Positions 515 through 49,080 of a stretch of 64,000 nt of DNA are shown here, in pieces. The stretch comes from Planctomycetota bacterium. GTDB taxonomy: Bacteria > Planctomycetota > UBA8742 > JACQVU01 > JANLHZ01. The stretch covers positions 595-64,594 of the forward strand of contig JANLHZ010000250.1 of assembly GCA_024653775.1 (NCBI GenBank). Reading direction: 5' to 3'. The position numbers and the translations under genes are program-made. Positions within the stretch are counted from its first letter, which is position 1, and each line of letters starts with the position of its first letter. The notes beneath the pieces were generated by a model. It made no database searches. It saw only the letters and a list, made by a program, of their open reading frames with translations, and had not been told where the DNA came from.

Positions 515-3500
515 TCAGTACCCGAAAAGCTGGGTCCAGTAGCGGTTTTTGTCTTTCTCCGCCGCGACGCCGATGTAGTTGTAGTCCGCTATGAGAAGGT
601 TTCGATGGTGGCCGGGAGAGTGTTGCCAGCCGTCGAGCGCGCCTTGAGCGTCGAAGCCGTTCGGGTGCCAGGCGAGGTTCTCGCCGACTCTCCTTGTGTA
701 TCCCGCGCGCCTCGCCCTTTGAAGCGGATCGCGGCCAAATGGATGGCCGTCGATCTCGTGGTCGATGCGCCCGATTTCGCCCATATAGTCGGAGTGCCAC
801 CGCGACGCCTGCACGAGCTGTTCGCTGATCGCGACCGCGCCGACGCCTAGCATGAGCCTGTAGTCGTTGGTCAGTTCGACGAGTTTGTATTCTTCCGCGG
901 ACAGAAGTTCGCCCTCTTTATATGCCTCGTTCGCCTCGATAATCTGGTACGAGGTCTGAAGCCTCCGCCCGTCGCTCGAATTCAGCGGCTCCTTGTGCAC
1001 GCTGAAAATCACCTTGTCCGGAAACTCGGTCATCGAAAGCGAGCCGTATTCAGCCTTGTTCCAGTGTTCGCCCTGCGGGTCCGCCTCCTGAAGAATGGCT
1101 CGGATGTCCCCAAGCGACGTCGTCACGCTTCTGACGAACTCGGCGCGCTGTGGCTGAAGCTCCTCGACGACCTCTGACGGACGCTCCCAAATCTTGCGTA
1201 CGTCCTTCAGCGCGTCGTCGATCTTTCGCTGGTGCGCGATGAATCCCGCGTCGTTCTTGTCGTAGTCGGTCGGGTAGTTGGTTTCGTCGTTGATCAGCTC
1301 AATCGCTGTGTTCGCGTAGGCCTGATGCTGCCTGCGGAGCGTGCGGATCAGCTCCGGATCGCTGGCGTTCCGAAGGTTTCTGAGCTGCCTTTCGAACTTC
1401 TCGCTGACGAACTCCGCGATCTCCTTCGCGATGTTCGCGTCCCGCTGGCAGTAACGCGCGAGGGAGTTCCATGCCGCCTTCGAGGCTTCCTTTTCCCGCG
1501 AACCCTCCGCCTCGTCGAATCCGCTCTTGAAGGTTCGAATCCACTCCGGGACGCGCTCCGTATCGCGGAATTCCACAGCCTCGTCGCGGGTCATATACCT
1601 CGAAGCGGCGTCGTACCAGACGACCTCCGTCCCCTCGGGGAGATTTCGGCCCCTGCGGTACATTTCCGCGCTCCAATCCCGGTGCGCCGCGGAATCGAGC
1701 GTCCTAAGCTGCACGAGCGCTTCCATCCCGGCTTCGTCGTCACCCGCGCGGTAGCTGAACACCGCCATCCCGCGGAGTTCGTCCGCATCGAGCCCCCGTT
1801 TGCCGTCTTTCGCGATCGCCAGCGTAAACGTCGGCTGGAAGTCTTTCCACTTGAACGAGCTTCGCGTTCCGCCGCCGCCCATATTGACGGTGATCGATTC
1901 CTCGTCCGCTTCCATCGCGCGCATCGAATCGCGTGGGCCGAACCTCGCGCGGCTCGCGTCGCCTGCGTTCACCACGCGGATGATTCCGCGGATGAAAGCC
2001 GCACCGTAGCGGATGTCGCTCGCCTTCGTCTCCTCGCGAGAGCCGGAGCGAAACGTCACGCCTTCGAGCTTCGCAGCCGCACCGAGCCAGTTGTTCGCGG
2101 CCAGCAGCACTTCCGCGTCGGTCAGCGCCGCGCTTGGATCTATCGCGACCGGTGGCGGACTGATTCCGCTACCGCCGTTCGTTACAGAGGGCGGCTGCGA
2201 GACTACGCGCTCGGAAGGTCTCTCGAATCGACCTTCCTTGATGACGATTTCGATCCTGCCTTCGTTCTCGAAGCCGGGGAGCTTATGGAGCATCGTCTGT
2301 AAGAATCCGTCGTTAGACTGCCTTTCCGCGCCCTCGGTGAGATTCAGGTAAAGCTGGGCGAGCGCCCATTCCGCGGCTGGAAGCGCGTTATGCTCCATCA
2401 TGATAAAGACCATCGCGCGAAAGCGATCCGGGAGGCGCGTCCTGTCTTCGAGCGTAAACCGGAGCCATTCGCCGATCTGCATCGGATCGACGCGGCTCCA
2501 GCGCTCAGTCTGCTGTCGGGACATGTTCTGCACCTCGACTTCCTCGTCGCTGGCGCGCAGAGGAATCATCCGGGAGTTTTCTTCGGCAAACTTCGCCCGG
2601 AACGACGCGAATTCGCCGTGGTTGATGGACTGGATCATCGAGTCGAAAACGATTTTCATAAGACGGAGCTGATCGAGTCTTCTCGCAGCGTCCGGGTCCG
2701 GCTCCGTCCTGAGTCCCGCGGCTTCGTCGTACCTCGCGACCGCGTCGGTGAACCGATACGCCTGGGCGAACGTGTCTCCGGTGCTTATGAGGAGCGCGAT
2801 GGTTTCCTCGCTACTCATCACAGGGCCTCCGCCCTCTTCCGCGCTCATCGAGGAGCTTGTGAGGTCTACTTCCTGACCCGCGCGGTAATCCTCGGTGACG
2901 GTGCGGAGCGCTTCAAGCTCCCTCGCGACCCGTCTTTCATGCACAGTGCGCGCGACGTCCTCGAAAAGATCGAGGAGGACGATGCTTGCGAGTTCGAAAT
3001 TCGGGTTGTCCTTGATCCTTACTACGCCGCGCTCGTCGTAAAGCGGCTGCCCCGCTCCGTCGCGGCCTTCGATCCAGCAGTCCTGGCTCTGTTTCACCTT
3101 GCCCGAGTAATGCTGCGAAAGCCTGCCTGTAAGCTCGGTTTCCTTCGTGCGAAGGGTTTCGTCGAGATCGATACCGACCCGCGCCAGTTCGAGCTTGCGT
3201 TTCGAATTCAGCGCGATGAAGTCGTCGAGCACGGTCCGTGCCCTTGCGAAACTAAGCTTCGCGAGGTGCCCGTCGATGTCGCGACCCAGCGCGGAGATAT
3301 CCTCCTCGAATTCGCGGCGGATTTCGTCCTCGATTATCCTTATCTGGAGTTTCGCGTCGCCCGAGTATTCGCTTTCCGGATATTCCTGCATGAACCGTCT
3401 GTACGCTTCGATCTTGTCGACCCGGCTCACCAGCGCCGAAATCTTCTGGTACGCGATCTTCTCTTCGCTGATCGTGACTTCCTCTGTGACGCCAGTGAGA

Positions 3501-4627
3501 CTTGCGAGAACGCCCGCGACGTACTCCTGCGCGAAAATCAGAACGCCGACCGCTACGAAGATCAGCGCCGCGACTGGGACGTAGACCTTCGGTGAATTCA
3601 GCTTCCGCCAGCGCTGCCTTACCTTCACTTCGTCGTCGCGATGAGTCCGCGCGTACTCCTTGTCGCCGAAGGTTATCCGGCTGTCGCCTATCTCGATGAC
3701 GTCCAGATACCTTAGCGGGCGTTCGTTGATTTCCTCCCCTGCGATCCTCGTCCCGTTCGAGCTTTTGAGATCCAGAATGCGCCAGGTGCCGTCTATCTTC
3801 CTCACCTGCGCGTGATACCGCGAGCACTTGATCTCGTCCGGGATGCAGATGTCGTTGTCTTCCTCGACCCGACCGATTCGCACACAGTCGGCGCCGTCCG
3901 GGATTTCATACGTGAACGCCGCGCCCACGCTTTCGACATAGAGGACCAGCGTCTTTCCGTCGCCCTTCGTGCGGTGCGCGATACTCTTTCCGGGATGTTT
4001 GTCGTGCTTCTCGTGCTTTTCTTTTTCGGGCTTTTCGTTCCGGTCGTTTTTGCCCTCATCCTCATCTCTATTTCGATGGCGTTTCCGTTCGCGCTTCTCT
4101 TCCTCGAAAAGCTCCTCCTGATCTTCCGGAGCGTCCGCGGGCTTCTCCTCCTCCGGCTCTGCAACCTCCGCCTTCGCCTTCAGGGTTTTCGAATTTTCCT
4201 TTTCATCCTTCTTTTTCTTCGCGGGTTCGTCCTTCGCTTTTTTCGAAGTCTTTTCCGAGGGCTTTTCAGGCGGCTCGTACCCTGGCCTCGGCCCGCGCTT
4301 TTTCGGACTGCCGTTACACTCGAAAATCCCGTCGTCCTTGGTTTTCCCGTCGTTGATTCTGACGTGGAGCGAGACGAGCTTTTCCTTGGTTTTCTTGAAA
4401 GTGACCGTCAGCCCTTCGACGTCCGAAGCCTCGAGTCCGCGCATCGCGACGTTCCTCAGAAACTGCTCCTCGAGAAGCGAAATCTTTCCTTCCGCAAGAA
4501 GCTGCGTCGAAAACGAGTGCCCCGGCGCCTCGGATTGCCAGCGTTCGAAACTCTCCTCGATCTCACTTTGCTTCACAAGTCCGGTACGAACCGCGAGCAT
4601 TGCGACTATGAGGTTTGGATTCGCCAT
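515..4627 (-). CDS. large FHA-domain membrane protein with C-terminal CAP/SCP (YkwD-like) domain
   Basis: 1370 aa. FHA signature (VRIGR..DICIPD..SRYHAQV..DLKSSNGT), then one TM helix (VYVPVAALIFVAVGVLIFA), then ~900 aa extracytoplasmic. The C-terminus matches the CAP/PR-1 pattern (GENLAW...GWQHSPGHHRNLL...IGVA...YWTQLFG). A Lys/Glu-rich low-complexity region lies near the N-terminus. Confidence 0.9.
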   Translation of the reverse strand: MANPNLIVAMLAVRTGLVKQSEIEESFERWQSEAPGHSFSTQLLAEGKISLLEEQFLRNVAMRGLEASDVEGLTVTFKKTKEKLVSLHVRINDGKTKDDGIFECNGSPKKRGPRPGYEPPEKPSEKTSKKAKDEPAKKKKDEKENSKTLKAKAEVAEPEEEKPADAPEDQEELFEEEKRERKRHRNRDEDEGKNDRNEKPEKEKHEKHDKHPGKSIAHRTKGDGKTLVLYVESVGAAFTYEIPDGADCVRIGRVEEDNDICIPDEIKCSRYHAQVRKIDGTWRILDLKSSNGTRIAGEEINERPLRYLDVIEIGDSRITFGDKEYARTHRDDEVKVRQRWRKLNSPKVYVPVAALIFVAVGVLIFAQEYVAGVLASLTGVTEEVTISEEKIAYQKISALVSRVDKIEAYRRFMQEYPESEYSGDAKLQIRIIEDEIRREFEEDISALGRDIDGHLAKLSFARARTVLDDFIALNSKRKLELARVGIDLDETLRTKETELTGRLSQHYSGKVKQSQDCWIEGRDGAGQPLYDERGVVRIKDNPNFELASIVLLDLFEDVARTVHERRVARELEALRTVTEDYRAGQEVDLTSSSMSAEEGGGPVMSSEETIALLISTGDTFAQAYRFTDAVARYDEAAGLRTEPDPDAARRLDQLRLMKIVFDSMIQSINHGEFASFRAKFAEENSRMIPLRASDEEVEVQNMSRQQTERWSRVDPMQIGEWLRFTLEDRTRLPDRFRAMVFIMMEHNALPAAEWALAQLYLNLTEGAERQSNDGFLQTMLHKLPGFENEGRIEIVIKEGRFERPSERVVSQPPSVTNGGSGISPPPVAIDPSAALTDAEVLLAANNWLGAAAKLEGVTFRSGSREETKASDIRYGAAFIRGIIRVVNAGDASRARFGPRDSMRAMEADEESITVNMGGGGTRSSFKWKDFQPTFTLAIAKDGKRGLDADELRGMAVFSYRAGDDEAGMEALVQLRTLDSAAHRDWSAEMYRRGRNLPEGTEVVWYDAASRYMTRDEAVEFRDTERVPEWIRTFKSGFDEAEGSREKEASKAAWNSLARYCQRDANIAKEIAEFVSEKFERQLRNLRNASDPELIRTLRRQHQAYANTAIELINDETNYPTDYDKNDAGFIAHQRKIDDALKDVRKIWERPSEVVEELQPQRAEFVRSVTTSLGDIRAILQEADPQGEHWNKAEYGSLSMTEFPDKVIFSVHKEPLNSSDGRRLQTSYQIIEANEAYKEGELLSAEEYKLVELTNDYRLMLGVGAVAISEQLVQASRWHSDYMGEIGRIDHEIDGHPFGRDPLQRARRAGYTRRVGENLAWHPNGFDAQGALDGWQHSPGHHRNLLIADYNYIGVAAEKDKNRYWTQLFGY

Positions 4628-4647
4628 ATTTCACACACACGGATTTT

Positions 4648-4829
4648 AGGCCTCGGAACAAAATAAACTACCGTTTCTGCATCACATCTTCACACCGTAT
4701 TCATTCCGCGCTCGGTTGCCAAATCCTCATCGGAACTTTGGCTACGACTCCGGTTTGGCTCTCTCGCGCAAAATGAATCTCGCGTAAATCTGAGCGCATA
4801 AATCGATACCTTATTTTGTTCCGAGGCCT
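4648..4829 (+). repeat. ~180-nt covarying hairpin element, copy 1
   Basis: Terminal helix AGGCCTCGGAACAAAATAA / TTATTTTGTTCCGAGGCCT encloses a ~120-nt core shared with 5672-5851 (inverted) and 32544-32729. Confidence 0.75.
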
Positions 4830-4863
4830 TACTATCTGGGGCGTTCGATATCTTCCGTCTCGA

Positions 4864-5634
4864 TCAGCCGAAGTCGAAATCCTGATCCGGGCCGAAGGTG
4901 AGCTTGAAATCGACCTTGCCTTCGTCGAGATTGAAACTAGTAGGAATGCACTCCTCGTCCTCCGCGGTTTTCTTGTTGCCGACGATGATTTTGGTCTTGC
5001 CGATGGTGATCTCGTCGCCCCAGTTGAGCGCCTGCTGGGAGACCCTTTCGCCGTTGACGCAGGTTCCGTTGGTGCTTTTCAGGTCGACGAGAACGAATTC
5101 GTCTCCCATCTTTTCGAGTTTGCAGTGGTTCCTCGACGATTTGACCTCGTCGATCTGGATGTCGTTACCTTCGCCTCGTCCGACGGTGATGACTTTGGTC
5201 GCGTCGTCAATCGAAATGAATCGATCGCGAATACCGTCCAGCACCTCGACGAAAAGGTCTTCCCTCCGCGCGAGCTTCCCGCCGCGCATTTTCGGCATCG
5301 GAGTTCCCGGAGGGGAAGCTTTCTGTACTCCAGGCGGCGCGGAAACCGCGTCTTCGAAAATCAGTCTCGTCGCGCCTATCGTGAAAACCATTCCGTGCTT
5401 GAGCTTGACCTCGGCGATCTTTTCGCCGCCGATCTTGGTGCCGTTGCTGCTTCCGAGATCCTTTAGCACCCAGTCGCTGCCGCTACGAACGAGCGCGCAA
5501 TGTTTTCGGCTCGCCTTTCCCTCCGCGAGCTGAAGGTCGTTGCCTTCCTCCCTGCCGATGCTGAACGCGGTCGCCAGCGTCGGAATGTTGACTGCTCTTT
5601 CCTGGCCGCCGGAATGAATTTTGAGTGTTGCCAC
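4864..5634 (-). CDS. tandem FHA-domain protein
   Basis: 256 aa with two FHA signatures (FSIGREEGNDLQL..SRKHCALV..LKDLGSSNGT and ITVGRGEGNDIQI..SRNHCKLE..LVDLKSTNGT). Confidence 0.9.
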   Translation of the reverse strand: MATLKIHSGGQERAVNIPTLATAFSIGREEGNDLQLAEGKASRKHCALVRSGSDWVLKDLGSSNGTKIGGEKIAEVKLKHGMVFTIGATRLIFEDAVSAPPGVQKASPPGTPMPKMRGGKLARREDLFVEVLDGIRDRFISIDDATKVITVGRGEGNDIQIDEVKSSRNHCKLEKMGDEFVLVDLKSTNGTCVNGERVSQQALNWGDEITIGKTKIIVGNKKTAEDEECIPTSFNLDEGKVDFKLTFGPDQDFDFG

Positions 5635-5671
5635 CGATTACCTCTGGTTCGAATAACTGGAACTGGAATAA

Positions 5672-5851
5672 GGAGTCGTGTCAAAATAAGTTTACGAATT
5701 TCACGCTCAGATTTGCATCAGGTTCGTTTTGCGCGAGGAAGCCCAACCGGAGGCGTAGCTGTAGTTCCGGTGAGGATTGGGCGACCGAGCGCGGAACGAA
5801 GATGATGTGAAGATGTGATGTGAAAACGGCAACTTATTTTGTCACGACTCC
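5672..5851 (-). repeat. ~180-nt covarying hairpin element, copy 2 (inverted relative to copy 1)
   Basis: Terminal helix GGAGTCGTGTCAAAATAAG / CTTATTTTGTCACGACTCC. The core aligns to the reverse complement of copy 1 over ~120 nt. Confidence 0.75.
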
Positions 5852-6024
5852 TAAGGCTTGTAAAATGATGTCACAGGACCTGAATTTGTCAATGATATTT
5901 GGTTCAGAAAAGCATTACAAGCGCAAAAGCGGCCCCGTGGGTATCGCGAGGCAAGACTGCTTTGCGGGACTTCAGGCAGGCCGCGGCCAAGGCGGGATTC
6001 GGAATCGAAGTCGCGCGTTCGATT

Positions 6025-8898
6025 TTATGACGGTTTCGCGAACCTTCCCGACAGCTTTCTCCCGAGTTTCACGATCTTCCGGAAGGTGTCGTCCTTCTCG
6101 GACAAACCCGCCACGAAATCCTCGAGGCTCTCCTCCGCCGCGGCTTTCTTGTGCTCCCGGCGGAATTCGGCGATGGAAATCTGTTTCGCCCGCTTGATCG
6201 CCTTCAACGCCTGGTCGATGTTCCCGAGTTTATAAAGGAACAGCGCGACCTGAAGCGCGACGTCTCTTCGTGGCACGACGACGTCCATTGCGGGATAACG
6301 CAGAATCCGCATCAGGCGCTTAAGTCCTTCCGCGTAGTTGCTGCTCTTGATGCAGAGGTTCGCGCTCATCACGAAGTACTTCGCCGCGATGTCGTAGAAC
6401 CCGAGTCCCTCGAAATCCGCCGCGGCTTCTTCGAGGACGCTTTCCGCGGCGCTCTGCTGGTTCATCCATTCCCGGAGTTCCGCGAGTTCCACGCTGAAGT
6501 CGATCACGGTTACGGGCGCGGAGAGTCGATCTATCTCGCGGATCGAATCGTTAAAGTAGCCTAGTCTTGCGCTAACGACGATCATCGCGCTCCCGTACAC
6601 CACCTCGTAGACGAAATCGTCCGCGTGCCCGAGAAAGGATCGCGCGCCGCTCAGGTAGGTCCGCGCGAGCCTCAGTCCGACGTTGTCGGGCAGAATCGAT
6701 TTGAACCGCTTGAATCCCTGCGCGATCTTCTCGAGCGGCGTGTTCGCGTCCATGGGCTTATTCGCGAGCAGCTCGGGCGAGTTCATCGCGGAGACGAGGT
6801 AGTAAAGGCCGACGCTCGCGTACATCCGGAAGCGAAGGGCCGGGTCTTCCGCGAACATGTTCCTTTGAAGAAACCTGCGCGACTCCTCGAGAATCTGCAC
6901 GAAGCACTTCTCGCTCGCCGACACCAGCGGCAGCGTCTTCTTGACGAGTTCCAGCGGGCTTTCGATGTTCGCCAGTAGCGGCTGCTCCTTGAAAAGCAGC
7001 AGCGCCGCGATGAAGCTCGAAAGGAACATCGTCCGTGAAACGATCTCGTCTCCGGAAAGCTGGCTTTCGATCACGCTTTCGTGGATCTTCTCCGCGATGG
7101 CGTAGTAAGGCGAGCGCTTCGTCACGGTCGACCACATTCTCTGAATCTTCGAGAACTCGGTCATATAGTCGCTCTGGATCGCTTTCGCGCTCTTCGTCAG
7201 CGTTCGATTCCATTTTTTCGATTCCTCGCCATCGAGCAGTGGGAACTCACGGACCCTCCCGTACGCGAGAGCGACGTACGCGTATGCGAGATTCTTCACA
7301 TGGGGCGATTCCTCCCCGCACCACCCGTCGATTATCTTCGAGCGAAACCCCTCTCTGGTCGAAGTCACGTTCGACGTCAGCTTAGTGAGCGACGAGAAGT
7401 CGAGGTGACTCTCGACGATGTTCTCGATCTCGATGCCCGCCCGGGTGAAAACCTTCTGCGAATCGTGGGCCTGATCTTCCGATTCGAACCGCGCGATGAA
7501 AATCCGTCCGCCCGGAAGCGTCGCGGCGATCGTGTTCACGATCTGTTCCGACAGCGGGTTCTCCTCGCTGAGAAAGAGCGCGGTCTTCCTTCCTCGGACG
7601 AGGTTCTCCACAAGCCGTCCGGCGGACCGCGAAAGAAACGATCTGTGGAACGGGCCGTGAATCTCGCTTATCTCGGAGCTGGAAGCGTCGACGAAACTCT
7701 CCGGCTTGTCCGCGGAGCCGTAGACCTTGAGCAGAGTCACCTCGTCGCGCACGGCTTCGTTCGCGAGCTCGTTCTCGATTTCCTCGTGAGTCGAGATAGT
7801 GCGGTACGAAACCCCCTCGGCGTCGAACGCGCGTTCGATAGCGGTGTCGATGCGTGTAGTCACGATCCGCCTCAGCCTGCCCTCTTTCACGACCTTGCAG
7901 AGCATATCTTCGAAGGACGAAGGCCCGAGCGCGCCGAGTTTTCCGATAAGCTCGCGGGTCGCGCTTTCTGAAACGTTCGAAACGAGGTGCAGAAGAAACG
8001 GACTCGCCGCGACGTCGCTCACGTCGAGGGTCAGCCCGTTCGTCTGGGAGAACGCCGGGTCCTTCGAAAGCGCGTCCGCGATCTCCTTCGTCACGGCGGT
8101 AAGCGTGACGTCCTGCGCGTCCGCGCGCAGGTGCGACGTGAAAACCAGCGTCTCGATCTCGCGGAGAAGGTCGATTTCCTCGCTTTCCTCGCTGTAACTG
8201 CTGAGCGCGCTCGAAATAAAGTCGTCGTCGTAGAACATCGTGTCGCCAAGGGCGCCTTCGCCCAGCAGTTCCGCGTCGAGAATCTGCTCCATCCCCGGAA
8301 TCGAAAGCGCCTCGCCGCTGTCCTCCGCGCTCAGATCCGCAAGATCAGCCCTGGACAACTCCTCCTCCGGCTGCGGCATGTCCGCGAACGGCTCCTCGAA
8401 TTCGATCCCGTCATCCGCGGCTTCCGCAATCTGAGGAGCCTTCGACACGGGGAATTCATCTAGTTCCGGCGGTTCGTCGAACTCGGCGTGGGAAAACTTA
8501 GAAACTATCTGAGGCTCAGGGAGTGCAGACGCCTCGTCTGCGCCAAAGCCTTCAGACGTCTCGTTCGAAGGCTCCGAAAAGTCGGAAACTTCTGCTTGAG
8601 ATAGTTTCTTGGAGGGTTCTTCCGGAATTTCGGTCTGCGCGGACGCGACGGCTGCTTTCTTCGCCGGCGCGGTTTCCGCAGCGGGAACCGCGTCTTCGGT
8701 TTCGCGGGTCAAAACTGTCGCCGCCGCCTTTTTCGGCGCTAGGGTTGCGGTGGGAATCGCTCCGTCTTCGAATTCGCTCATGGCGGGGATTCTGCACCTC
8801 GCCATGCAGGTCTTGCACACGAACGGTTTCCCGGCGTACTCTTCCTTCGCTCGCGATGCTTTACCGCACGATGGGCATAAAAAACGAAGCGTGGTCAT
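6025..8898 (-). CDS. zinc-ribbon / acidic linker / degenerate SIR2-like / TPR-like protein (function unknown)
   Basis: N-terminal CPSCG..CKTC zinc ribbon, ~230-aa acidic linker, a central region with SIR2_2-like motif order but altered catalytic residues (VTTRID, KVYGS), and a helical-repeat C-terminus. The start at 8898 is preferred over 8940 because of the AGGGGA RBS. Confidence 0.8.
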   Translation of the reverse strand: MTTLRFLCPSCGKASRAKEEYAGKPFVCKTCMARCRIPAMSEFEDGAIPTATLAPKKAAATVLTRETEDAVPAAETAPAKKAAVASAQTEIPEEPSKKLSQAEVSDFSEPSNETSEGFGADEASALPEPQIVSKFSHAEFDEPPELDEFPVSKAPQIAEAADDGIEFEEPFADMPQPEEELSRADLADLSAEDSGEALSIPGMEQILDAELLGEGALGDTMFYDDDFISSALSSYSEESEEIDLLREIETLVFTSHLRADAQDVTLTAVTKEIADALSKDPAFSQTNGLTLDVSDVAASPFLLHLVSNVSESATRELIGKLGALGPSSFEDMLCKVVKEGRLRRIVTTRIDTAIERAFDAEGVSYRTISTHEEIENELANEAVRDEVTLLKVYGSADKPESFVDASSSEISEIHGPFHRSFLSRSAGRLVENLVRGRKTALFLSEENPLSEQIVNTIAATLPGGRIFIARFESEDQAHDSQKVFTRAGIEIENIVESHLDFSSLTKLTSNVTSTREGFRSKIIDGWCGEESPHVKNLAYAYVALAYGRVREFPLLDGEESKKWNRTLTKSAKAIQSDYMTEFSKIQRMWSTVTKRSPYYAIAEKIHESVIESQLSGDEIVSRTMFLSSFIAALLLFKEQPLLANIESPLELVKKTLPLVSASEKCFVQILEESRRFLQRNMFAEDPALRFRMYASVGLYYLVSAMNSPELLANKPMDANTPLEKIAQGFKRFKSILPDNVGLRLARTYLSGARSFLGHADDFVYEVVYGSAMIVVSARLGYFNDSIREIDRLSAPVTVIDFSVELAELREWMNQQSAAESVLEEAAADFEGLGFYDIAAKYFVMSANLCIKSSNYAEGLKRLMRILRYPAMDVVVPRRDVALQVALFLYKLGNIDQALKAIKRAKQISIAEFRREHKKAAAEESLEDFVAGLSEKDDTFRKIVKLGRKLSGRFAKPS

Positions 8899-11613: not shown

Positions 11614-11648
11614 AAATTTAGACTTAGACTTAGTCGTAATCTTTTAAG
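11614..11648. repeat. conserved 35-nt block inside an AT-rich intergenic island, copy 1
   Basis: AAATTTAGACTTAGACTTAGTCGTAATCTTTTAAG is identical at 34/35 positions to 48808-48842. It contains tandem TAGNCT hexamers. Confidence 0.6.
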
Positions 11649-11735
11649 CCTATAAAAGAATATTATTAGCAATATATTGCTAATTTAAATATATTTATTA
11701 CGGTGATTTTATACTTGAGCTGCAAGGAGGGAAAA

Positions 11736-17220: not shown

Positions 17221-17248
17221 AGGATTCAGGATCGAGGATTCAGGATTA
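17221..17248 (+). repeat. 4 x 7-nt AGGATNN tandem repeat
   Basis: AGGATTC AGGATCG AGGATTC AGGATTA lies immediately after the flagellin terminator. Confidence 0.5.
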
Positions 17249-17463
17249 AGAGACTAACTTAAGCACCTGGGACCGCGGTCGTCTATGTCCGCAAAAGCCG
17301 TCAAACGTCTCGTCCGGAGGCTCCGAAATCTCAAATTATTCTTCTTAAGATAGTTGCCAAGTCGTGGCGTGAAGAGTCGCGCGGTGGGCATTTTCAACTT
17401 GGATTGTCGGTGAGCCGAGATTGCGATAAACTTGTCGTATTCCATAAACACTAGGAGACGACG

Positions 17464-20171: not shown

Positions 20172-21917
20172 ATGATCGCGACGGACGTTCATTGTTCCGG
20201 CCGGCGACTCGTTCTTCACGCAGAGCTTCCACCGCTGATGAATAAAATATTCCGCGCACTAACCCGTATTTATAATAATCCGAGGCTTCCGTGGATAGTT
20301 ATCGGCATTGGCGCGGCTCTTCGCATCGCTCATTATATTATGAATAGATCCGTGTGGCTCGACGAGGCCGCGCTTGCGCTCAATATTGTCAAAAGATCGT
20401 ATGCTGAACTTATAGAGCCGCTCGATCATTCCCAGGGTGCTCCGATATTTTTTTTGATGGTGGAACGATTCTTCGTGCAAGTATTCGGAAATGGCGAGTA
20501 CGCACTGAGACTATTCCCGCTCATTGCGGGAATAGTCTCTCTATTTCTTTTCTATAGCGTTGCAAAACAATATCTGCGTCCAAAAGTAGTATTGATAGCG
20601 CTCGGACTATTTGCCGTTTCGGATACGCTGATTTACTATGCCTCGGAAACAAAACAATATTCGAGCGACGTTGCTATCGCGCTGCTGATATTTTTTGCAA
20701 GCTATCGAGTTCACGCCGCAAAACTATCGATTTCGGTCGCGTCAGCCTACGCGCTTCTCGGAGCCGTGGCGATATGGTTTTCGCATCCTTCCGTGTTCGT
20801 TCTAGCCGGCGCAGGCGCTAGCCTTTTGTTATCGAGTACGATTAATACCGATCTGACTTGCCATACAGGCCTTGCTGGTTACTGCACGCGCGTCATGCGA
20901 ATCGCCGCTGCATCGCCATATCCACCAATATTCCTGCTTCGCGGCAATCCGCCTGACGCGCGTTCGCTACACCCTCAAAACATGCCTGACAAGTCAGATC
21001 GGTATAAAATGGACTGGCGGCGGGCATTAGGTCTTATAGTCGTTTACGGAATCTGGGTGTCGAGTTTTATCGCGTCATACTATTTATCCCTGAACAGTTT
21101 AGCGAGCAACGCGAAACTGTCCGGATACTGGAGCGAGAATTTTATCCGTTTTCCGCCGACGTCTCTTACGGACCTGAAATTGTTTCTGGGAACGCTGATC
21201 GATATATTCGACGTCCCGGTTGGAGTTTATCGAACGGGAGCATCTATCGCTGCTATAGCATTCCTTTTCGGCTGCGCGTCGATGCTTCGGAAAAACCGTG
21301 GTAGCTTTGTTATTTTGATGTCCCCGATTTTTTTTACGCTGCTCGCATCCGCGCTACAGAAATATCCGTTCAGCGGACGGCTATTACTATTCATCGCGCC
21401 GAGTCTGATACTATTGATTGCGGAAGGTATTGCGGAAATAATCGACCTTACTAAATCGAAGGCGCCGATCGTCGGGCTGGCGTTCTCAGCGGCGCTGATT
21501 TTCTTTTTTCTGCTTCCGACCGGGTATCATTTAATAGTAAAGCCGCGAAACGCGGAGGAAATAAAGCCTGTGATGAATTACCTTAAAGAAAATCGACGGG
21601 AAGGCGACGTGATATATCTCTATTATGCGTCGGAGCTTGCTTTCGAATATTATTCAGGCAGATACGGTTTCGATCCGGAGGATTGCATCGCCGGGGTATC
21701 TTCAAGAAACGACGCGGATAAATACCTGAGCGACGTCGACGAGCTTCGAGGAAACGAAAGAGTGTGGCTGGTTTTTTCGCACTTGAACGTCGGCAAGGGT
21801 GGAGTCGAGGAGAATCTTATTCTGTCCCATCTCGAAACCTACGGAACCAGGCTCGACGCTTTTCAAAGAGTCGGCGCGTCAGTTTATCTCTTCGATCTGA
21901 GCGACTCGCCCGAGTAA
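20172..21917 (+). CDS. GT39/ArnT-like polytopic membrane protein
   Basis: Multiple TM helices, WLDEAALALNI motif. Visibly AT-richer than its neighbours. The alternative start is ATG 20238. It carries an in-frame insertion (20846-21004), and its stop codon lies inside a MITE end. Confidence 0.8.
   Translation: MIATDVHCSGRRLVLHAELPPLMNKIFRALTRIYNNPRLPWIVIGIGAALRIAHYIMNRSVWLDEAALALNIVKRSYAELIEPLDHSQGAPIFFLMVERFFVQVFGNGEYALRLFPLIAGIVSLFLFYSVAKQYLRPKVVLIALGLFAVSDTLIYYASETKQYSSDVAIALLIFFASYRVHAAKLSISVASAYALLGAVAIWFSHPSVFVLAGAGASLLLSSTINTDLTCHTGLAGYCTRVMRIAAASPYPPIFLLRGNPPDARSLHPQNMPDKSDRYKMDWRRALGLIVVYGIWVSSFIASYYLSLNSLASNAKLSGYWSENFIRFPPTSLTDLKLFLGTLIDIFDVPVGVYRTGASIAAIAFLFGCASMLRKNRGSFVILMSPIFFTLLASALQKYPFSGRLLLFIAPSLILLIAEGIAEIIDLTKSKAPIVGLAFSAALIFFFLLPTGYHLIVKPRNAEEIKPVMNYLKENRREGDVIYLYYASELAFEYYSGRYGFDPEDCIAGVSSRNDADKYLSDVDELRGNERVWLVFSHLNVGKGGVEENLILSHLETYGTRLDAFQRVGASVYLFDLSDSPE
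20846..21004. mobile_element. 159-bp TIR element inserted in frame, flanked by TAA direct repeats
   Basis: Perfect 15-bp TIR TACCGATCTGACTTG / CAAGTCAGATCGGTA. TAA at 20843-20845 and at 21005-21007. Confidence 0.6.
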
Positions 21918-22040
21918 TTGTTCGCGGTCTATAGCGGGATTCTGTAGTAGTAGCCTGTAAGGGCATATTTTTCAAGATGTGGTGGATCAAAAGAAACGCC
22001 TTAGGAGGCTACGAACGCGAACCGCCCCCTGAACAGTTAC
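21914..22040 (-). mobile_element. MITE family GTAACTGTTCACGGGGTA, degenerate copy
   Basis: It aligns in reverse orientation to 48932-49080 and 54853-54993. One end is shortened (GTAATTGTTCGCGG). No target duplication is visible. Confidence 0.6.
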
Positions 22041-31472: not shown

Positions 31473-31625
31473 ACTGATATCATAATAATATCATACGCGC
31501 CACTGCCCGGCGAAGTTCGAAGGCGAAAAATAAATTTTCGCGTTCTGTTCGAACAATGTGGCGGTTTGTCGGCGCAGGTAAGACGATTGCGCACAGGGCA
31601 ATCGCATTTAGAATACCACATTTTA

Positions 31626-31702
31626 TTCGTACCGTCTACGAATTATTTGTACTGTTATTGTCGGCGGACAAAATAATACATTAAATTCGTAGACGGTACG
31701 AA
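31626..31702. repeat. TTCGTA-N5-TACGAA palindromic element, paired copy (locus a)
   Basis: TTCGTACCGTCTACGAA (31626-31642) and its complement TTCGTAGACGGTACGAA (31686-31702) flank an inner TTATTGTC/GACAAAATAA hairpin. Confidence 0.65.
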
Positions 31703-31719
31703 TTTAATGTTGTATTGCG

Positions 31720-32559
31720 CTACCGCAGCCAGCCGCGGAGTTTGTCGATGGACTCGGTTATCCGCGTCGGCGCGTCGTGAGTGTTTCGCGATAGCTCGAC
31801 GCTGATCAGATTCCCGTATCCGAGGTCTTCCAGAGTTTTCAGGACCGACGGAAAGTCGATCTCGCCTTCGCCGAGCGGGAGGTGCTCGTGCACGGGGCGG
31901 ACCATGTCTTCGATGTGAATCTGCCGGAGGTCCGCGATGTTCTCGCGAATCGCGTCCGGGATCGTCTTCGACTCGTCAAGATGCGCGTGGCCGACGTCGA
32001 GCGTCAGCCACAGCCGACCGCGATCCGCGAGCGCGTCTTTCAGCCGGTGCCACTCGCTGACGGTCTCGATGAACATACCCGGCTCCGGCTCGAAGCTTAC
32101 GTCGATCCCTCGATTCCCTGCGTATTCTATAATCGCGGGCAGCCGCTTCGCGAGCATCTCGAACGCTTCGTCGTCGCTCGTCCCAGGCTCTTTCACACCC
32201 GACCAGAGACTTACGCACCCGGCGCCAAGGCGCTCGGCGACGTCGATCGTGCGCTTTAAATATTCGAGCCGCGAAAGCCACGCGTCGCCTTTCGTCACGA
32301 GCGTAGGAAAGTGTTTTCGCTTCGAATCGAGCAGAAACCTCGCGCCGGTTTCCATCGCGATTTCAAGGCCCAGCTCTTCAACGACGAGTTCGATCGCGCG
32401 AACGTCGAGCACGCCCGACGTCAGCGGGTTCAGATGGTGCGTATCGAGGGTTATCGACGCGCCCGCGTATCCCGCGTCCGCAATCATCCGTAGCGCGTCT
32501 TCCAGACGGTGCTGCAGACAACCCGATGTGTGGTACGCGAACTTTAGGACGTGTAACAT
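31720..32559 (-). CDS. sugar phosphate isomerase/epimerase (xylose-isomerase-like TIM barrel)
   Basis: LDVGHAHLDE, IHIEDM, HLPLGEGEIDF, ISVELSR motifs. The start codon lies inside the arm of repeat copy 3. Confidence 0.85.
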   Translation of the reverse strand: MLHVLKFAYHTSGCLQHRLEDALRMIADAGYAGASITLDTHHLNPLTSGVLDVRAIELVVEELGLEIAMETGARFLLDSKRKHFPTLVTKGDAWLSRLEYLKRTIDVAERLGAGCVSLWSGVKEPGTSDDEAFEMLAKRLPAIIEYAGNRGIDVSFEPEPGMFIETVSEWHRLKDALADRGRLWLTLDVGHAHLDESKTIPDAIRENIADLRQIHIEDMVRPVHEHLPLGEGEIDFPSVLKTLEDLGYGNLISVELSRNTHDAPTRITESIDKLRGWLR

Positions 32560-32729
32560 AATAACCTTTCAACCTTGCATCACATATTCACACCATCTTC
32601 AATCCGCACTCAATCGTCAAATCCTCGACGGAATTACGGCTACGACTGCGGTTTGACTCAATCGTGCGAATCGAACCTGATGCAAATCTGAGCGCAATTT
32701 TTGAATGTTTATTACGTTACGCGTCCTAA
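32544..32729 (+). repeat. ~180-nt covarying hairpin element, copy 3
   Basis: Terminal helix TTAGGACGTGTAACATAATAA / TTTATTACGTTACGCGTCCTAA. The core aligns to copies 1 and 2. Confidence 0.7.
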
Positions 32730-33572: not shown

Positions 33573-33680
33573 AGATTCCTTCTGAAAGTGAAGACGGCAT
33601 TGTATCGTTAAACCCAGCAATGTTTCAATCTGCGTCGCGAAAGCAGTTGCGGTGAGATCCGGCAAAAACATTACATTATA

Positions 33681-33757
33681 TTCGTGCCGTCTACGAATTT
33701 ACTGTAATATTCAGATTGTCTGGCAGAATAGTACGAAAAATTCGTAGACGGCACGAA
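33681..33757. repeat. TTCGTA-N5-TACGAA palindromic element, paired copy (locus b)
   Basis: TTCGTGCCGTCTACGAA and TTCGTAGACGGCACGAA. The A-to-G change relative to locus a is mirrored by T-to-C in the partner arm. Confidence 0.65.
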
Positions 33758-33765
33758 TAAAGTGT

Positions 33766-34683
33766 TCAGATTCCTGCGCCGGACTCGAACCCTTCGATTC
33801 GCGGGACGCCCTGCAAAATCTTACTCTTCGGCGGGACGGATTCCGTCACCCAGACGTTACCGCCTATGACGGAGTCGCTTCCGATAGTGATGCGTCCGAG
33901 GATCGTCGCGCCCGCGTAGATGATGACGCGGTCGCCGATTATCGGGTGGCGCATGATTCCCTTGACGAGACTTCGGTCCTCGTTTGCCTTGAAGCTTTTC
34001 GATCCGAGCGTGACGCCCTGATAAATCCGCACGTCGTCGCCTATGATCGAGGTTTCGCCTATGACTACACCCGTACCGTGGTCGATGAAGAATCGATCTC
34101 CGATCTGCGCGCCGGGGTGGATGTCGATGCCGGTGATGCTGTGCGCGTATTCGGTGATGATCCGCGGAAGCAGCGGCACGCCCAGTCTGTAGAACTCGTG
34201 GGCGATGCGATAGAAGATCGTCGCCTGAATCCCGGGGTAGCAGATGAGCGCCTCGTCGGGATACTTCGCCGCGGGATCGCCGAGAAACGCCGCCGTGACG
34301 TCTTCGGCGACCTTATGTTGAATTTTCGTGAGGCTTCCGAGAAACGACTCGAGCAGGGATTCGACCTGGGCACCGAACTGCTCGGTGGAGGTTGCGACGT
34401 CGCTACGGAAACAGAGCGCCCGCGCGATCTGCTCGCTGAGCGCGGGGACGACTTCCGTCAGCGTCTGGCGGATGAACGGGATTTCGTCCCCGCCAATGAA
34501 GTTGTGCGGTCCGAAATACGCAGGGTACAGAATCGCTTCGATTTTGCGAACGATGGCGCCGAGTTCATGTCTCGACGGCCTCGTGCCGCAGGACTTCGAT
34601 CCCGCAGTCGCCCAGTCAATACTGTGAAACCCCTGCGAGAGGTCTTTCGCAAGATTATCCAAAGTAACCATAACTCTACTCAC
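33766..34683 (-). CDS. cysE: serine O-acetyltransferase
   Basis: Hexapeptide-repeat region GIDIHPGAQIGDRFFIDHGTGVVIGETSIIGDDVRIYQGVTLG. Located next to cysK. Confidence 0.9.
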   Translation of the reverse strand: MSRVMVTLDNLAKDLSQGFHSIDWATAGSKSCGTRPSRHELGAIVRKIEAILYPAYFGPHNFIGGDEIPFIRQTLTEVVPALSEQIARALCFRSDVATSTEQFGAQVESLLESFLGSLTKIQHKVAEDVTAAFLGDPAAKYPDEALICYPGIQATIFYRIAHEFYRLGVPLLPRIITEYAHSITGIDIHPGAQIGDRFFIDHGTGVVIGETSIIGDDVRIYQGVTLGSKSFKANEDRSLVKGIMRHPIIGDRVIIYAGATILGRITIGSDSVIGGNVWVTESVPPKSKILQGVPRIEGFESGAGI

Positions 34684-37162: not shown

Positions 37163-37711
37163 GTGTTTCTCTACAATATGGTGGGAGGCTGGGGAATCGA
37201 TAAATGTAACGACTAATTTATGGCTGTGTGCGCGAATGTCAATGATAAAGGCAAACGGTACGGTCACGAGTTGATCGAGTGCGAACGTCCCGTACGCAAG
37301 TAGCGCAGTCGTCCCGGCTGCAAACTGGAAGTGCCGGTCACTTTGGGAGTGCCCGGCACATGGCGATTTACTCCTCCATTTCCCGGAGGAAAAAGGAAAC
37401 CGCGCGTCCTAAATACTGCGCAGGCGAGACGCCTGCGCCCCCGGAATGCGCAGCCAAGATGTACCGGGTGCCTCGTAAGACCTCGTCCGCTCACAAGTTA
37501 GTAGCGGCGACGCCAGGCGTTTATATGTCCTCACGGGCACACCTGCAAACCTCGTAGGAGCGCGAACGCCGTCGTCCGGGCAATTTTCCTTCCGATAGAA
37601 AACATGGGACATTATAATACAAATAATTCGTAGATGGCACGAATAAAGAAGCCCATCGATTTATGCAACAAAGCCGATCTCATCGCGAGATACGCAGGGC
37701 CGTTGGCGCGG

Positions 37712-43272: not shown

Positions 43273-43928
43273 CTCGCTCCTGGCTGCAAGACTTTCGAAC
43301 TGCTTATTTATTGGGAAACCGGAATGTGTGTGAATTCCTCAACTAAAAAATTATACCTGAGATATTCCGTGCCGACGCAGTTTTCCCGGGAGTTGGATTT
43401 TTTCACACGGGCGCCCCAATAGTGTTCGGCACGCCTCCCGCGGTGAATTTTGTCCTTTGTGTTTTTGTTCAGGATTGACAGGCAATCCTGACATGATGAC
43501 ATCTTAGGACGCGCGTCCTAAACGCCATCATGATATGTCCCTAATGTAATGCCACCTGACATATAGGAAGTTCACCGTGACCAGGCCTGAAAGAAGTTGA
43601 CGGAAAGATGATTGCATTCAGGCGATATTCTTGTTACCCTGTAGGCAATGAAAGTAATAGACAAAAAATGCATATTATAGATAGATACGTAATTCTATTC
43701 AGATTTTATTAATACAATTAATTATGAATTGTATTAATAGTGCTTTAAATACAGTACATATAGATTCGTTCATACAAATGCCAATGTTCCAATTTTGGCG
43801 TTAGCGTTAAGTGAAACCAGTTGCCTGGTTTTCCGGGACGACCCAATAGTGTTTAGCGCCGATCGTGACGAACACTAATGCGGGCGCCATTAGAAACTAT
43901 CTCAAGCAATCGACATCGATAATTCGGA

Positions 43929-43957
43929 GCCGTCAAACGAGACGTTTGACGGCTTTT
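43929..43957 (+). terminator. orphan plus-strand intrinsic terminator
   Basis: GCCGTCAAACG-AGA-CGTTTGACGGC followed by TTTT. No plus-strand ORF ends here. Confidence 0.65.
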
Positions 43958-44000
43958 GCGGACGATGACGTCCGCGGTCCCGGGTGCCTACGATAGTTTC

Positions 44001-44627
44001 TTAGTCCTCGAATTCGCAGACGTCGCTGTGCAGAACGACGTGCTGGGCGCCGTCCGACCGGATCAGCCGCGTTTCGATTATGAAATGCTCGCGGAACTTA
44101 AGCTCCGGACCTTCAGGCGAGAACGCAAGGGCGTAACACCGGGTGGAGACTACAAGCGCGCAGTTCTGTCCGTTTTCCCTCTCGACCTCGTTTTTCGCGA
44201 GTCCGGGAATACCTTCGACCGCGGACTCTATTTTCGACTCGATCGCGCGAACGAGCGCTTCGATCCGAGACTTTCTGCGAGATTCAAGCTCGAACTTGAC
44301 GACCTCGGATCGCGCCTGCTCAGAGTCGATTTCGTGTACCAGAGGCTGCGCGAGGGCGACCGTGATCCGCCCGATTTTTCTATCGCGGACCAGGGTTACA
44401 ATCGCGTTCCGGAGATCGCCTTCGATGAATTCCGTCACTTCCGCCGGAAGCTCCGGCTCCACGTTTTGCCGTGGGGACGTTGGCGCTTCCGAGGCCATCG
44501 GATTCCGCTCGGCGACCACCTCGATCCGCGGCGGCAGTGTCGCGGGTTCGTTCGTTACAGCGCAGGCGGAAAGCCTCAGCCAGAAAAAAAAGAAAGCCAA
44601 AGTCACTATTCCGCGCTTTTGAAGCAA
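44001..44627 (-). CDS. lipoprotein (unknown function)
   Basis: Signal peptide with lipobox LSAC. TTG start (or GTG six codons downstream). Confidence 0.7.
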   Translation of the reverse strand: MLQKRGIVTLAFFFFWLRLSACAVTNEPATLPPRIEVVAERNPMASEAPTSPRQNVEPELPAEVTEFIEGDLRNAIVTLVRDRKIGRITVALAQPLVHEIDSEQARSEVVKFELESRRKSRIEALVRAIESKIESAVEGIPGLAKNEVERENGQNCALVVSTRCYALAFSPEGPELKFREHFIIETRLIRSDGAQHVVLHSDVCEFED

Positions 44628-44640
44628 ATTTCCGATCCCC

Positions 44641-44808
44641 TACTCCCTACTCCCTACTCCCTGTTCCCTACTCCCTGTTCCCTGCTCCCTACTCCCTTCT
44701 CCCTACTCCCTGCTCCCTTCTCCCTACTCCCTGCTCCCTACTCCCTGCTCCCTACTCCCTTCTCCCTTCTCCCTACTCCCTTCTCCCTACTCCCTTCTCC
44801 CTACTCCC
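44641..44808. repeat. 24 x 7-bp tandem repeat TNYTCCC (GGGARNA on the coding strand)
   Basis: Counted units are TACTCCC, TGTTCCC, TGCTCCC and TTCTCCC. The array fills the spacer between the stop at 44812 and the start at 44627. Confidence 0.95.
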
Positions 44809-44811
44809 TTC

Positions 44812-46317
44812 TTATTTGCCACCGTCGACGTAAGTCCCGCCTGACATTTCAGCGAGCCCCTGCAGAAGAATCTTGTCGTGGTCGGCGCCGATGCCCACGG
44901 TGTTGACGATCAGATGGCGGGAGAGGTTGAAATCGTAGAACGCGTTCAGATGCTCTTCCGCGGTGGCGTACTTGCTCAGCATCGGGACGCCGTCGGTGAG
45001 GAAGTAGATCGTGTCCGGGCTGTTCTGATAGTGGTAGGGATGGTCGATGTTCGCGCGTACCTCCTGGACGTCCGTGGTCCGCGCGGCTTCGACGAGCGCG
45101 TCCCAAATGTTCGTCGCGCCCATCGGCCCGAGCTTTTTCATGTAGTCGATCGCTTCCTGGCGGTTCGCGGGAGTCGCGAAAACGAGCTTGTCTTTCCAGC
45201 GCGAAACTCCGCTCGAATACACGACGAGATTGAACCGCGTTCTCTCCGGAAGGAACCACGCGGCGCGGGTGAATTCCGCGACCGCGAGATCGAACTTGCT
45301 GAAAATCCTCGCCGGCTCTATCGGCGGCGGGCCGGTGACGTCGGGACGGAGCGGGTCCGCTGTGAATTGCCCGCGGAATCTGTCGCGAACGCTCGTGTCC
45401 ACAGGATCGGACATACTCCCGGAAATGTCGATTACGAAACAGATGCGATCGCTCGAAATCTTCATTCCGTAGTACGTCGGCGGCTGGGGCTGTGCGTAGT
45501 CGCCACCGCCGGGGACGAACGCGTTCCCCGCGGCGCGGTTTCGAAGGACGCTGCGCCACCAGCTTTCCCACGCGTCGGGGTCGGGACCGAGATTTCCGCT
45601 GGTGATCCGCTTCAGCGCGTCCACGAGAATTTCGCTCACGAGTTTGCTGCTAGATTTCCGCAGCGCTGAGCAGAGCTGGAATACGTGCTCCTCCTTCGCG
45701 GTTTTCGATAGCGCCCGCGCGCAGCCGTGCTGAAGCGCCCACATATCGTGATCGATCAGCTCGAAGAGTTTGTCTACGTAGAAGTCGTCTTCGGAAAATG
45801 CGACCGCGTCGACCGCCGCGATGAGGAGCTGATGGTCCTCGGAATCGAGGAACTTCGTCAGAGTCTCGCGGACCTTGTCGCTGCCTTTGATATGCCCGAT
45901 CGCGAGAAGAAGCTGCGCCCCGAGTTCGTACGTCAGGCCGCGGCGCGAAAGGTACTCGCAGAGGTCCTCTATAGATTCCTGAAGAGTCGTCTCGCCGAGC
46001 GCGGATACGCAGTCTCTCCGAACTTTGTAGCTCTTGTCACGGGCGAGAATGTCGAGGAGCAGGTTGGTTGCTTCCGCCTTCTCGATTCCAGAGAGCATTC
46101 TCACAGCGTCGATTCGGAGCTGTTCGAGCCGCGCGTATTCGACGCTGTACTGCGGAGTCCCCGTGGGCGCGAGTTCCACGGACCCCGCCTCGTACATCTG
46201 GGCGACCTGCCTTCGAAGTTGCTGCCATTCCCTGCGGTCCATTTCTTCCGCGAGCGCAATGGGCGCGAAGTTCGCGAGTCCAATGGCTATGAACAAAATA
46301 ATTCTGAGGTTTGGCAT
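44812..46317 (-). CDS. HEAT-repeat / von Willebrand factor A domain protein
   Basis: Signal peptide, HEAT-like repeats (VRRDCVSALGE), and the VWA MIDAS motif (ICFVIDISGSMSD). Confidence 0.85.
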   Translation of the reverse strand: MPNLRIILFIAIGLANFAPIALAEEMDRREWQQLRRQVAQMYEAGSVELAPTGTPQYSVEYARLEQLRIDAVRMLSGIEKAEATNLLLDILARDKSYKVRRDCVSALGETTLQESIEDLCEYLSRRGLTYELGAQLLLAIGHIKGSDKVRETLTKFLDSEDHQLLIAAVDAVAFSEDDFYVDKLFELIDHDMWALQHGCARALSKTAKEEHVFQLCSALRKSSSKLVSEILVDALKRITSGNLGPDPDAWESWWRSVLRNRAAGNAFVPGGGDYAQPQPPTYYGMKISSDRICFVIDISGSMSDPVDTSVRDRFRGQFTADPLRPDVTGPPPIEPARIFSKFDLAVAEFTRAAWFLPERTRFNLVVYSSGVSRWKDKLVFATPANRQEAIDYMKKLGPMGATNIWDALVEAARTTDVQEVRANIDHPYHYQNSPDTIYFLTDGVPMLSKYATAEEHLNAFYDFNLSRHLIVNTVGIGADHDKILLQGLAEMSGGTYVDGGK

Positions 46318-46511
46318 CGAGCGTCCCCAAGTATGTATCTGGGCGTGCCCACAAATTACCCCGCGGCGCTCCTACGTGCAAATGATAACTCCCGCCGTCG
46401 TTGATTTAACATTATATTCGTACCGTCTACGAATTTATTGTAATATTACCAGTATCTCCAGAAGAGATGGCGCATACTATCGAAGGTCGAAGCCCTGAAA
46501 ACCAAGCCGCG

Positions 46512-48807: not shown

Positions 48808-48842
48808 AAATTTAGACTTAGCCTTAGTCGTAATCTTTTAAG
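48808..48842. repeat. conserved 35-nt block inside an AT-rich intergenic island, copy 2
   Basis: AAATTTAGACTTAGCCTTAGTCGTAATCTTTTAAG matches 11614-11648 at 34/35 positions. Confidence 0.6.
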
Positions 48843-48931
48843 GCATTAATTTCCTATCTATTATCAGTTAATCAACTAATTATTCTTATTATAATACTTA
48901 TAAAGCATGATAGTATCCGTGCATATATTTT

Positions 48932-49080
48932 GTAACTGTTCACCTGTTCACGGGGTAGTTCGCGTTCGTAGTGGCGCCGTAAGGCGTTTCTTTGATCCAC
49001 CACACCACGAAAATATGCTCTCACGAGCACACTACTACAGAATCCCGCTATAGACTGCGATCTACCCCGTGAACAGTTAC
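48932..49080 (+). mobile_element. MITE, 18-bp TIR GTAACTGTTCACGGGGTA, 8-bp TSD TATATTTT
   Basis: Terminal inverted repeats at both ends. TATATTTT directly flanks both ends. There is an internal CTGTTCAC duplication in the left end. Confidence 0.75.

Follow-up and report, generated by a model that had tools for sequence, protein, structure and literature searches.

An undescribed family of hairpin-forming MITEs with C|TNA|G target sites in Planctomycetota

Location of the copies and their fold

The 64-kb stretch of Planctomycetota DNA analysed here (contig JANLHZ010000250.1, referred to as the window) carries three copies of a hairpin element, W1, W2 and W3, all of them intergenic and located between co-directional genes of the minus strand. 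W1 and W2 stand on either side of a gene encoding a protein with two FHA domains (2xFHA); the next gene beyond W1 encodes a protein with an FHA domain and a C-terminal CAP (cysteine-rich secretory protein) domain, and the next one beyond W2 is SIR2-like. The neighbours of W3 are a xylose-isomerase-like TIM-barrel gene and an alpha/beta-hydrolase gene. Relative to the flanking genes, W1 and W3 are antisense and W2 is sense. The three repeats are members of an undescribed family of miniature transposable elements with inverted repeats (MITEs) of Planctomycetota with the target C|TNA|G, and the reading that accounts best for them, which we hold to be probable, is that they are MITE copies mobilised in trans by a DDE transposase of the IS5/PIF-Harbinger type.

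A first-pass annotation of the window, made from the sequence alone, had placed three copies of about 180 nt at these sites. Their limits were refined to those given in Table 1, and the terminal helices that it quoted were confirmed, together with an inner helix of six pairs that reads GCCAAA/TTTGGC, GCCCAA/TTGGGC and GTCAAA/TTTGAC in W1, W2 and W3, respectively. The copies are 70-77% identical in pairwise comparisons and share the 15-mer CATCACATMTTCACA, which occurs three times in the window versus 0.06 occurrences expected by chance. Each of them folds into one long hairpin, with folding energies of -63.2, -75.6 and -58.3 kcal/mol and z-scores of -7.1, -8.8 and -5.9 for W1, W2 and W3, and with no equally good fold among 200 shuffles. 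Between its two ends the element is also largely self-complementary, and either strand forms a long hairpin.

All three window copies start with GG, end with CC and have T(T/A)A at their flanks. Terminal inverted repeats (TIRs) are present in every copy as arms of 18-21 bp, in which the invariant GG is followed by seven variable bases (CCTCGGA, AGTCGTG and ACGTGTA in the three window copies) and then by a conserved A-rich box, ACAAAATAA, which has the variant ACATAATAA in W3 and is also found as CAAGAATAA in the family. The outer arms had been described as unrelated between copies; this is true of the 7-nt segment that separates GG from the A-rich box, but not of the GG/CC ends and the T(T/A)A flanks, which are common to all three.

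The element is non-coding. Its sole open frame, of about 45 codons, lacks a start codon and is interrupted in the related subfamilies S1 and S4 described below, and a small protein gene was rejected on these grounds; the stop-free translations of W1-W3 (659 aa) returned nothing at E <= 1e-3 from a collection of 5.8 billion proteins. Rfam gave no match anywhere in the window at the gathering score, and none on the elements themselves at E <= 10 for W1-W3 or at E <= 1 for S1, S2 and S4. The description of an unnamed repeat family that forms a long hairpin holds. A fourth member of the family was found in the window neither with an nhmmer profile nor with a covariance model run with its filters off. 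The covariance-model match at 20839-21011 (31.8 bits) is an unrelated hairpin without the GG/A-box ends and is lost under default filters; it is 173 nt long, has perfect 15-bp arms, TACCGATCTGACTTG and CAAGTCAGATCGGTA, about 110 nt apart, and shows no sequence similarity to the family.

Table 1. Hairpin elements, subfamilies, neighbouring genes and other repeats (positions are those of the window)
Feature	Position	Strand	Length	Details
W1	4649-4828	+	180 nt	covariance-model score 179.4 bits
W1 arms	4649-4666 / 4811-4828			GGCCTCGGAACAAAATAA / TTATTTTGTTCCGAGGCC
W1 target-site duplication, left copy	4646-4648			TTA
W1 target-site duplication, right copy	4829-4831			TTA
W2	5672-5851	-	180 nt	covariance-model score 193.2 bits
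W2 arms				GGAGTCGTGACAAAATAA / TTATTTTGACACGACTCC, element-strand reading
W2 target-site duplication, one copy	5669-5671			TAA on + strand
W2 target-site duplication, other copy	5852-5854			TAA on + strand
W3	32547-32726	+	180 nt	most diverged of the three; covariance-model score 179.9 bits
W3 arms	32547-32564 / 32709-32726			GGACGTGTAACATAATAA / TTATTACGTTACGCGTCC, two mismatches
W3 left flank	32544-32546			TTA
W3 right flank	32727-32729			TAA
Subfamily S1 (JBFWWP01)			47 copies exactly 179 nt	at least 52 full-length copies; TIR GGAGTCGCCCAAGAATAAC
Subfamily S2 (JBFWWP01)				1 diverged copy; TIR GGGTCCGCGCAAGAATGAC
Subfamily S3 (JACQVV01)				1 partial copy; TIR GGGCCCGCGCAAGAATAAG
Subfamily S4 (six JGI metagenome contigs)				6 copies; TIR GGGCCCGCGCCAAAATAAA
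FHA+CAP gene	515-4627	-	1370 aa	FHA domain and C-terminal CAP domain
Spacer holding W1	4627 to 4864			stop of 2xFHA gene (4864) to start of FHA+CAP gene (4627)
2xFHA gene	4864-5634	-	256 aa
Spacer holding W2	5634 to 6025			stop of SIR2-like gene (6025) to start of 2xFHA gene (5634)
Second repeat family	31618-31716, 33673-33766, 37611-37648, 46408-46447		unit ~40 nt	ACATTATATTCGTACCGTCTACGAATTTATTGTAATATT
Third repeat family	48944-49091, 54857-55004, 21922-22040 (inverted)		~150 nt	87-97% identity
Short dispersed repeats	454-483, 59006-59083, 61420-61497
Short dispersed repeats	8541-8609, 17242-17360, 43890-44008
Short dispersed repeats	11614-11655, 48808-48849
Tandem array	44630-44815			~27 heptamers (CCCTACT / CCCTGCT / CCCTTCT)

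Relatives and subfamilies

Relatives of the element were found by scanning genome contigs, one genome per species, for the motif of the hairpin apex. At least 59 stretches carry it; among the matches listed, 51 lie in a single metagenome-assembled genome (MAG), Planctomycetota JBFWWP01, one comes from another Planctomycetota MAG, JACQVV01, and those in other phyla consist of the motif alone. Motif scans of the IMG/VR viral contigs gave 0 matches, and searches of the PLSDB plasmids by blastn in 'distant' mode, with W1 and the S1 consensus as queries, gave none.

The relatives are grouped into the subfamilies S1 to S4 (Table 1). The copies of S1 are spread over about 30 contigs of JBFWWP01, share more than 90% identity and have one single TIR in all 52 cases; their divergence from the S1 consensus is about 2% of sites. 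The six S4 copies likewise have one TIR type, with the same 5' arm in five and an identical 7-mer in four, and their core resembles the core of the window copies. The first-pass annotation had set the family apart from ordinary MITEs, which keep the same TIR in every copy, a distinction that many further copies with identical outer arms would remove; S1 and S4 are collections of such copies. Wherever one genome offers many copies for comparison, the family looks like an ordinary repeat whose TIR is fixed.

The asymmetric apex (AAATCCTC..GCTACGCCTCCGGTT), which is moderately conserved, and the internal unpaired blocks are common to all subfamilies, whose overall identity is only 50-65%. The subfamilies therefore descend from one ancestral MITE, and a separate birth of each of them from a different insertion sequence was rejected on the same evidence. 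The types of 7-mer are at odds with the phylogeny of the cores: W2 and S1 are 71% alike in the 7-mer and 57% in the core, and S4 and S2 are 86% and 65% alike, respectively. Such a pattern suggests that only a few types of end are permitted, which would be expected if each end has to suit a particular transposase.

Target site and transposition

The hallmarks of transposition are most visible in the S1 copies. The triplets on their two sides are identical in 33 of 50 copies, versus 30% expected from the triplet frequencies (p = 1.4e-7), and when TNA is present on both sides the middle base agrees in 31 of 43 (p = 7e-7). Moreover, C is found at position -4 in 43 of 51 copies and G at +4 in 40 of 51. 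The target is therefore C|TNA|G, of which TNA is duplicated. A 5-bp duplication of CTNAG was excluded, given that the terminal C of the element is constant even when the base at -4 is not C, as in W1 and at the locus L008. The 7-mer was also considered as a guide of target choice and rejected, as the 52 S1 copies with one 7-mer have flanks that are unrelated apart from C|TNA|G. The NuwaII group, which belongs to the PIF/Harbinger-IS5 (PHIS) superfamily, has been described with this target (PMC4482050), and a 3-nt TTA/TAA duplication has been reported for IS1237 and the IS1031 group of the IS5 family (PMC2516522).

Only one S1 copy lies inside a called open reading frame (ORF). Among the copies with a neighbouring gene within about 550 nt, 28 abut 3' ends of genes versus 14 at 5' ends, and in seven copies the duplicated TNA doubles as the stop codon (TAA/TGA) with which the neighbouring gene ends, as at L001, where the ORF at 1919-3445 has its stop at 3443-3445; the candidate loci for the other six such insertions are L003, L007, L011, L028, L034, L050 and L057. 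In the JBFWWP01 genome, which has 65% G+C, many of the targets appear to be provided by stop codons that lie within C-TNA-G. In addition, 8 of the 52 S1 copies either share a TNA with an adjoining short fragment (9-45 nt) from the end of another copy or lie in tandem (L001 4663-4890, L017 494-526, and the flanks of L020, L023, L051, L009, L025 and L050). Such abutting ends and tandems are expected, because the end of an element plus its duplication recreates C|TNA|G, and they suggest that these recreated sites were targeted by the family itself, with deletion following.

Taken together, the GG/CC ends, the TNA duplication within C|TNA|G and the fixed TIR of S1 form the signature of a DDE transposon, and the element is therefore a MITE. 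It also has the other properties of one: it is 179-180 nt long, below the limit of about 600 bp, has no transposase ORF, and carries TIRs and a target-site duplication. Many dispersed and nearly identical copies in one genome, a further property of MITEs, are found in JBFWWP01, and the window has three diverged copies. The earlier suggestion of a mobile element is thus borne out as far as mobility goes; its second part, a hairpin-recognising element of the single-stranded DNA type, is not, since a duplicated TNA with matching middle base points to the staggered cuts of a DDE enzyme.

The transposase would belong to the IS5/PIF-Harbinger (PHIS) superfamily, an assignment taken from the target signature by itself because no autonomous partner was found. 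Supplied in trans, such an enzyme would insert the copies, making predicted staggered cuts at C|TNA|G so that TNA is duplicated. Only copies with mutually matching ends, that is, with the same transposase site and an intact fold-back, would keep being copied; surviving lineages would in this way accumulate paired changes, and individual inserted copies would merely decay.

Several observations weigh against this reading. The window and about 0.5 Mb of related loci were searched for TIRs in pairs at distances of 500-3000 bp, for solo TIRs and for long repeats shared by the loci, and an autonomous element with the TIRs of the family was not found there. The flanks of W3 are unequal (TTA and TAA), a duplication decayed by one base. 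The copies from the window's own genome number three, and each has its own 7-mer; the protein collection holds no close relative of the window genome. Finally, transposase binding explains the matched TIRs but does not in itself explain covariation in the inner helices. The sole candidate for an autonomous partner, at 3446-4707 of L001, is flanked by a full copy of the element and by a 45-nt 3' fragment, and was rejected as a host membrane-protein gene with a metalloprotease-type HEFGH motif.

Covariation and the maintenance of complementarity

Base pairing between the two arms was compared in an alignment of seven representatives of the subfamilies, whose identity ranges from 50 to 86%. Their consensus hairpin contains 55 pairs, with 89.3% of the cells paired. 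In 29 pairs both sides have changed, versus 16.4 +/- 2.4 in column shuffles, where none of 500 was as high, and a control with the partners slid by 1-3 columns gave 3-7 doubly changed pairs. Compensation is present in every helix, beyond the terminal one. The covariation of the stems, first claimed from the three window copies, is thus upheld when the relatives are included. It is found only between subfamilies and is absent within young copies: 47 young S1 copies have 105 single stem changes and four double ones, one of them compensated, versus 3.1 doubles expected. Inserted copies therefore decay without being repaired in place, although this test has low power because the copies differ at only about 2% of sites. 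We infer that selection on the copies that are still transposing, the master copies, would be the cause of the covariation.

The same MITE could also have kept its complementarity through mutation, when a nascent strand folds back on the quasi-palindrome and template switching copies one arm from the other, so that a change in one arm becomes a compensated pair and the hairpin needs no function. This explanation, which we consider unlikely, would cover the whole length of the hairpin and not only the part bound by a transposase. A neutral process of this kind would also let paired and unpaired columns diverge equally, and they are indeed equally conserved (63% and 61% identity, respectively). 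Two S4 copies look like an intermediate and its compensated product, with L065 carrying a change in the 3' arm and L061 carrying that change on both arms. On the other hand, the young S1 copies should then hold compensated pairs, and their double changes are about as many as expected by chance and mostly uncompensated, next to the many uncompensated singles, within the low power of that test.

Another possibility is that the fold-back itself, beyond the sequence of the ends, is needed by the mobilising machinery, and that the element is a structure-selected replicator like REPINs with their RAYTs, which are a precedent for compensatory change in hairpin mobile DNA (PMC3116915). We regard this as quite doubtful. 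If it were true, recognition or processing of the element could, for example, take place on a single strand in its folded form or on a transcript, the 7-bp segment would be a 'structure only' spacer whose sequence may change provided that its pairing is kept, and a DDE-type MITE lineage would be persisting across Planctomycetota by its structure.

A host-required structured RNA, either a non-coding RNA or a cis-acting hairpin such as a processing site, stabiliser or terminator whose copies serve several operons, had been one of the two suggestions of the first-pass annotation and now seems very improbable. In its favour are the strong covariation and the very stable folds, the asymmetric apex common to subfamilies of 50-65% identity, and the intergenic positions in apparent operons. 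However, no match to Rfam was obtained for the window copies even at the permissive threshold given above, and the orientation to genes is not fixed, with two antisense copies and one sense copy in the window and 15 same versus 27 opposite among the copy-neighbour pairs of S1. G.U cells number 16, seven of them from one invariant pair, and A.C cells number 17; as A.C is G.U on the opposite strand, the lack of a G.U excess means that neither strand is favoured. Paired columns are no better conserved than unpaired ones (63% and 61% identity), which also speaks against an RNA. A terminator-like U-tract after the stems was not found, and the 52 nearly identical S1 copies lie beside unrelated genes with target-site duplications. 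Moreover, hairpins of MITEs that are co-transcribed are a known by-product (PMC10969869).

The remaining explanation is a single-strand transposon, of the IS200/IS605 or RAYT/REPIN-like type, whose core enters pre-existing palindromes that supply the outer arms. It was suggested by the outer 7-mers, which differ among the window copies and pair within each of them, and it has the REPINs as a precedent of hairpin mobile DNA with compensatory changes (PMC3116915), but it is already contradicted and barely tenable: the 7-mer lies inside the invariant GG/CC ends and the 3-bp TNA duplication, and is therefore part of the element and not of an older palindrome; one 7-mer is found in all 52 JBFWWP01 copies and another is identical in four of the six S4 copies; no empty GGAGTCGCC..GGCGACTCC palindromes were found in JBFWWP01, versus eight end-to-end junctions; and the duplicated TNA has a variable middle base, unlike what HUH elements produce.

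Comparison with known mobile elements

Correia, ERIC and RUP are bacterial MITEs of this hairpin kind, with a TA duplication. Bacterial hairpin MITEs such as QMITE2 of Coxiella and others resemble the family described here in size class, in their TIRs and direct repeats, in their intergenic location in either orientation and in the stable stem-loop that they form when co-transcribed (PMC10969869). The duplication of QMITE2 is 7-9 bp long (PMC10969869) instead of TNA, and the bacterial MITEs compared show no sequence similarity to the present family. Among the bacterial MITEs compared, a subfamily-specific segment of 7 nt between the end bases and the box is a feature of the present family.

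Tourist-like MITEs and the PHIS superfamily, in particular its NuwaII group (PMC4482050), resemble it in that the 3 bp TNA of a C|TNA|G site are duplicated, and in a short, non-coding, TIR-bounded form with high copy number and fold-back potential. NuwaII and Tourist are eukaryotic, whereas the family here belongs to Planctomycetota and is likened to them by the target signature only. In the IS5 family, the IS1031 group and IS1237/ISLxx6 (PMC2516522) are alike in their 3-nt TTA/TAA duplication and in the G-rich start of their ends (GAG/GG). They are, however, autonomous elements of 0.8-0.9 kb with a transposase gene, whereas the element here has 180 nt, is non-coding and is self-complementary throughout, and its TIR is unrelated to the printed TIR of IS1237 (PMC2516522).

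To our knowledge, neither REPINs nor HUH-type single-strand transposons in general make a target-site duplication. Elements derived from IS200/IS605 have no TIRs and no duplication, carry subterminal hairpins and insert 3' of a fixed tetra- or pentanucleotide; the present family has TIRs, and the middle base of its duplication is variable. It also differs from REPINs in its GG..CC ends and TNA duplication, no search having been made for a RAYT gene. REPINs are doublets of REP sequences that form hairpins and depend on a single-copy HUH/Y1 transposase, RAYT (PMC3116915), and they have conserved REP heads of the GTAG/CGTC type (PMC3733652), which the ends of the present element do not have.

Gene context of the window copies

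The 2xFHA gene has a spacer on each side, and W1 and W2 were inserted into these separately; with the elements removed, about 53 nt would be left of the spacer of W1 and about 207 nt of that of W2. A composite transposon made of W1, the FHA gene and W2 was rejected: each copy has its own matching duplication (TTA/TTA for W1 and TAA/TAA for W2), and the outer flanks of the pair are unequal, TTA versus TAA. Upstream of the FHA+CAP gene, 18 nt separate its start codon from the left duplication of W1. Among the 5.8 billion proteins, the 2xFHA protein has no homologue other than itself at E <= 1e-30.

Some consensus matches to promoters are located close to W2. Four sigma-70-like matches (0.6 expected) lie at 5836-5920, just upstream of the W2 arm or overlapping it, and they are consensus matches only. 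One of the four is TTGACA-16-CATCAT on the gene strand, and another combines an outward-facing TTGTCA inside the W2 TIR with TAAAAT in the flank.

Other repeats in the window

The genome to which the window belongs appears to be unusually rich in small intergenic repeats (Table 1). A second intergenic family has an AT-rich, palindromic unit, often present as two inverted units 13-15 nt apart, and occupies the spacers that flank the genes adjacent to W3; its members were also scored as hairpins by the covariance model. The third family is probably another small mobile element. Three further sets of short dispersed repeats and a tandem array of heptamers are also present.

Implications

With this analysis, a repeat that would otherwise be mistaken for a new structured RNA receives a name and a mechanism, and uncultivated Planctomycetota gain a MITE family whose target, C|TNA|G, has otherwise been described in PHIS transposons of eukaryotes. 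Repeats of this kind break short-read assemblies. They also call for caution, as fold-back transposons can give highly significant covariation without being RNA genes, and screens for RNA discovery should consequently check for TIRs and target-site duplications. For the organism itself, 180-nt hairpins have been placed inside operons, here on both sides of the 2xFHA gene, and the processing of the transcript may be affected.

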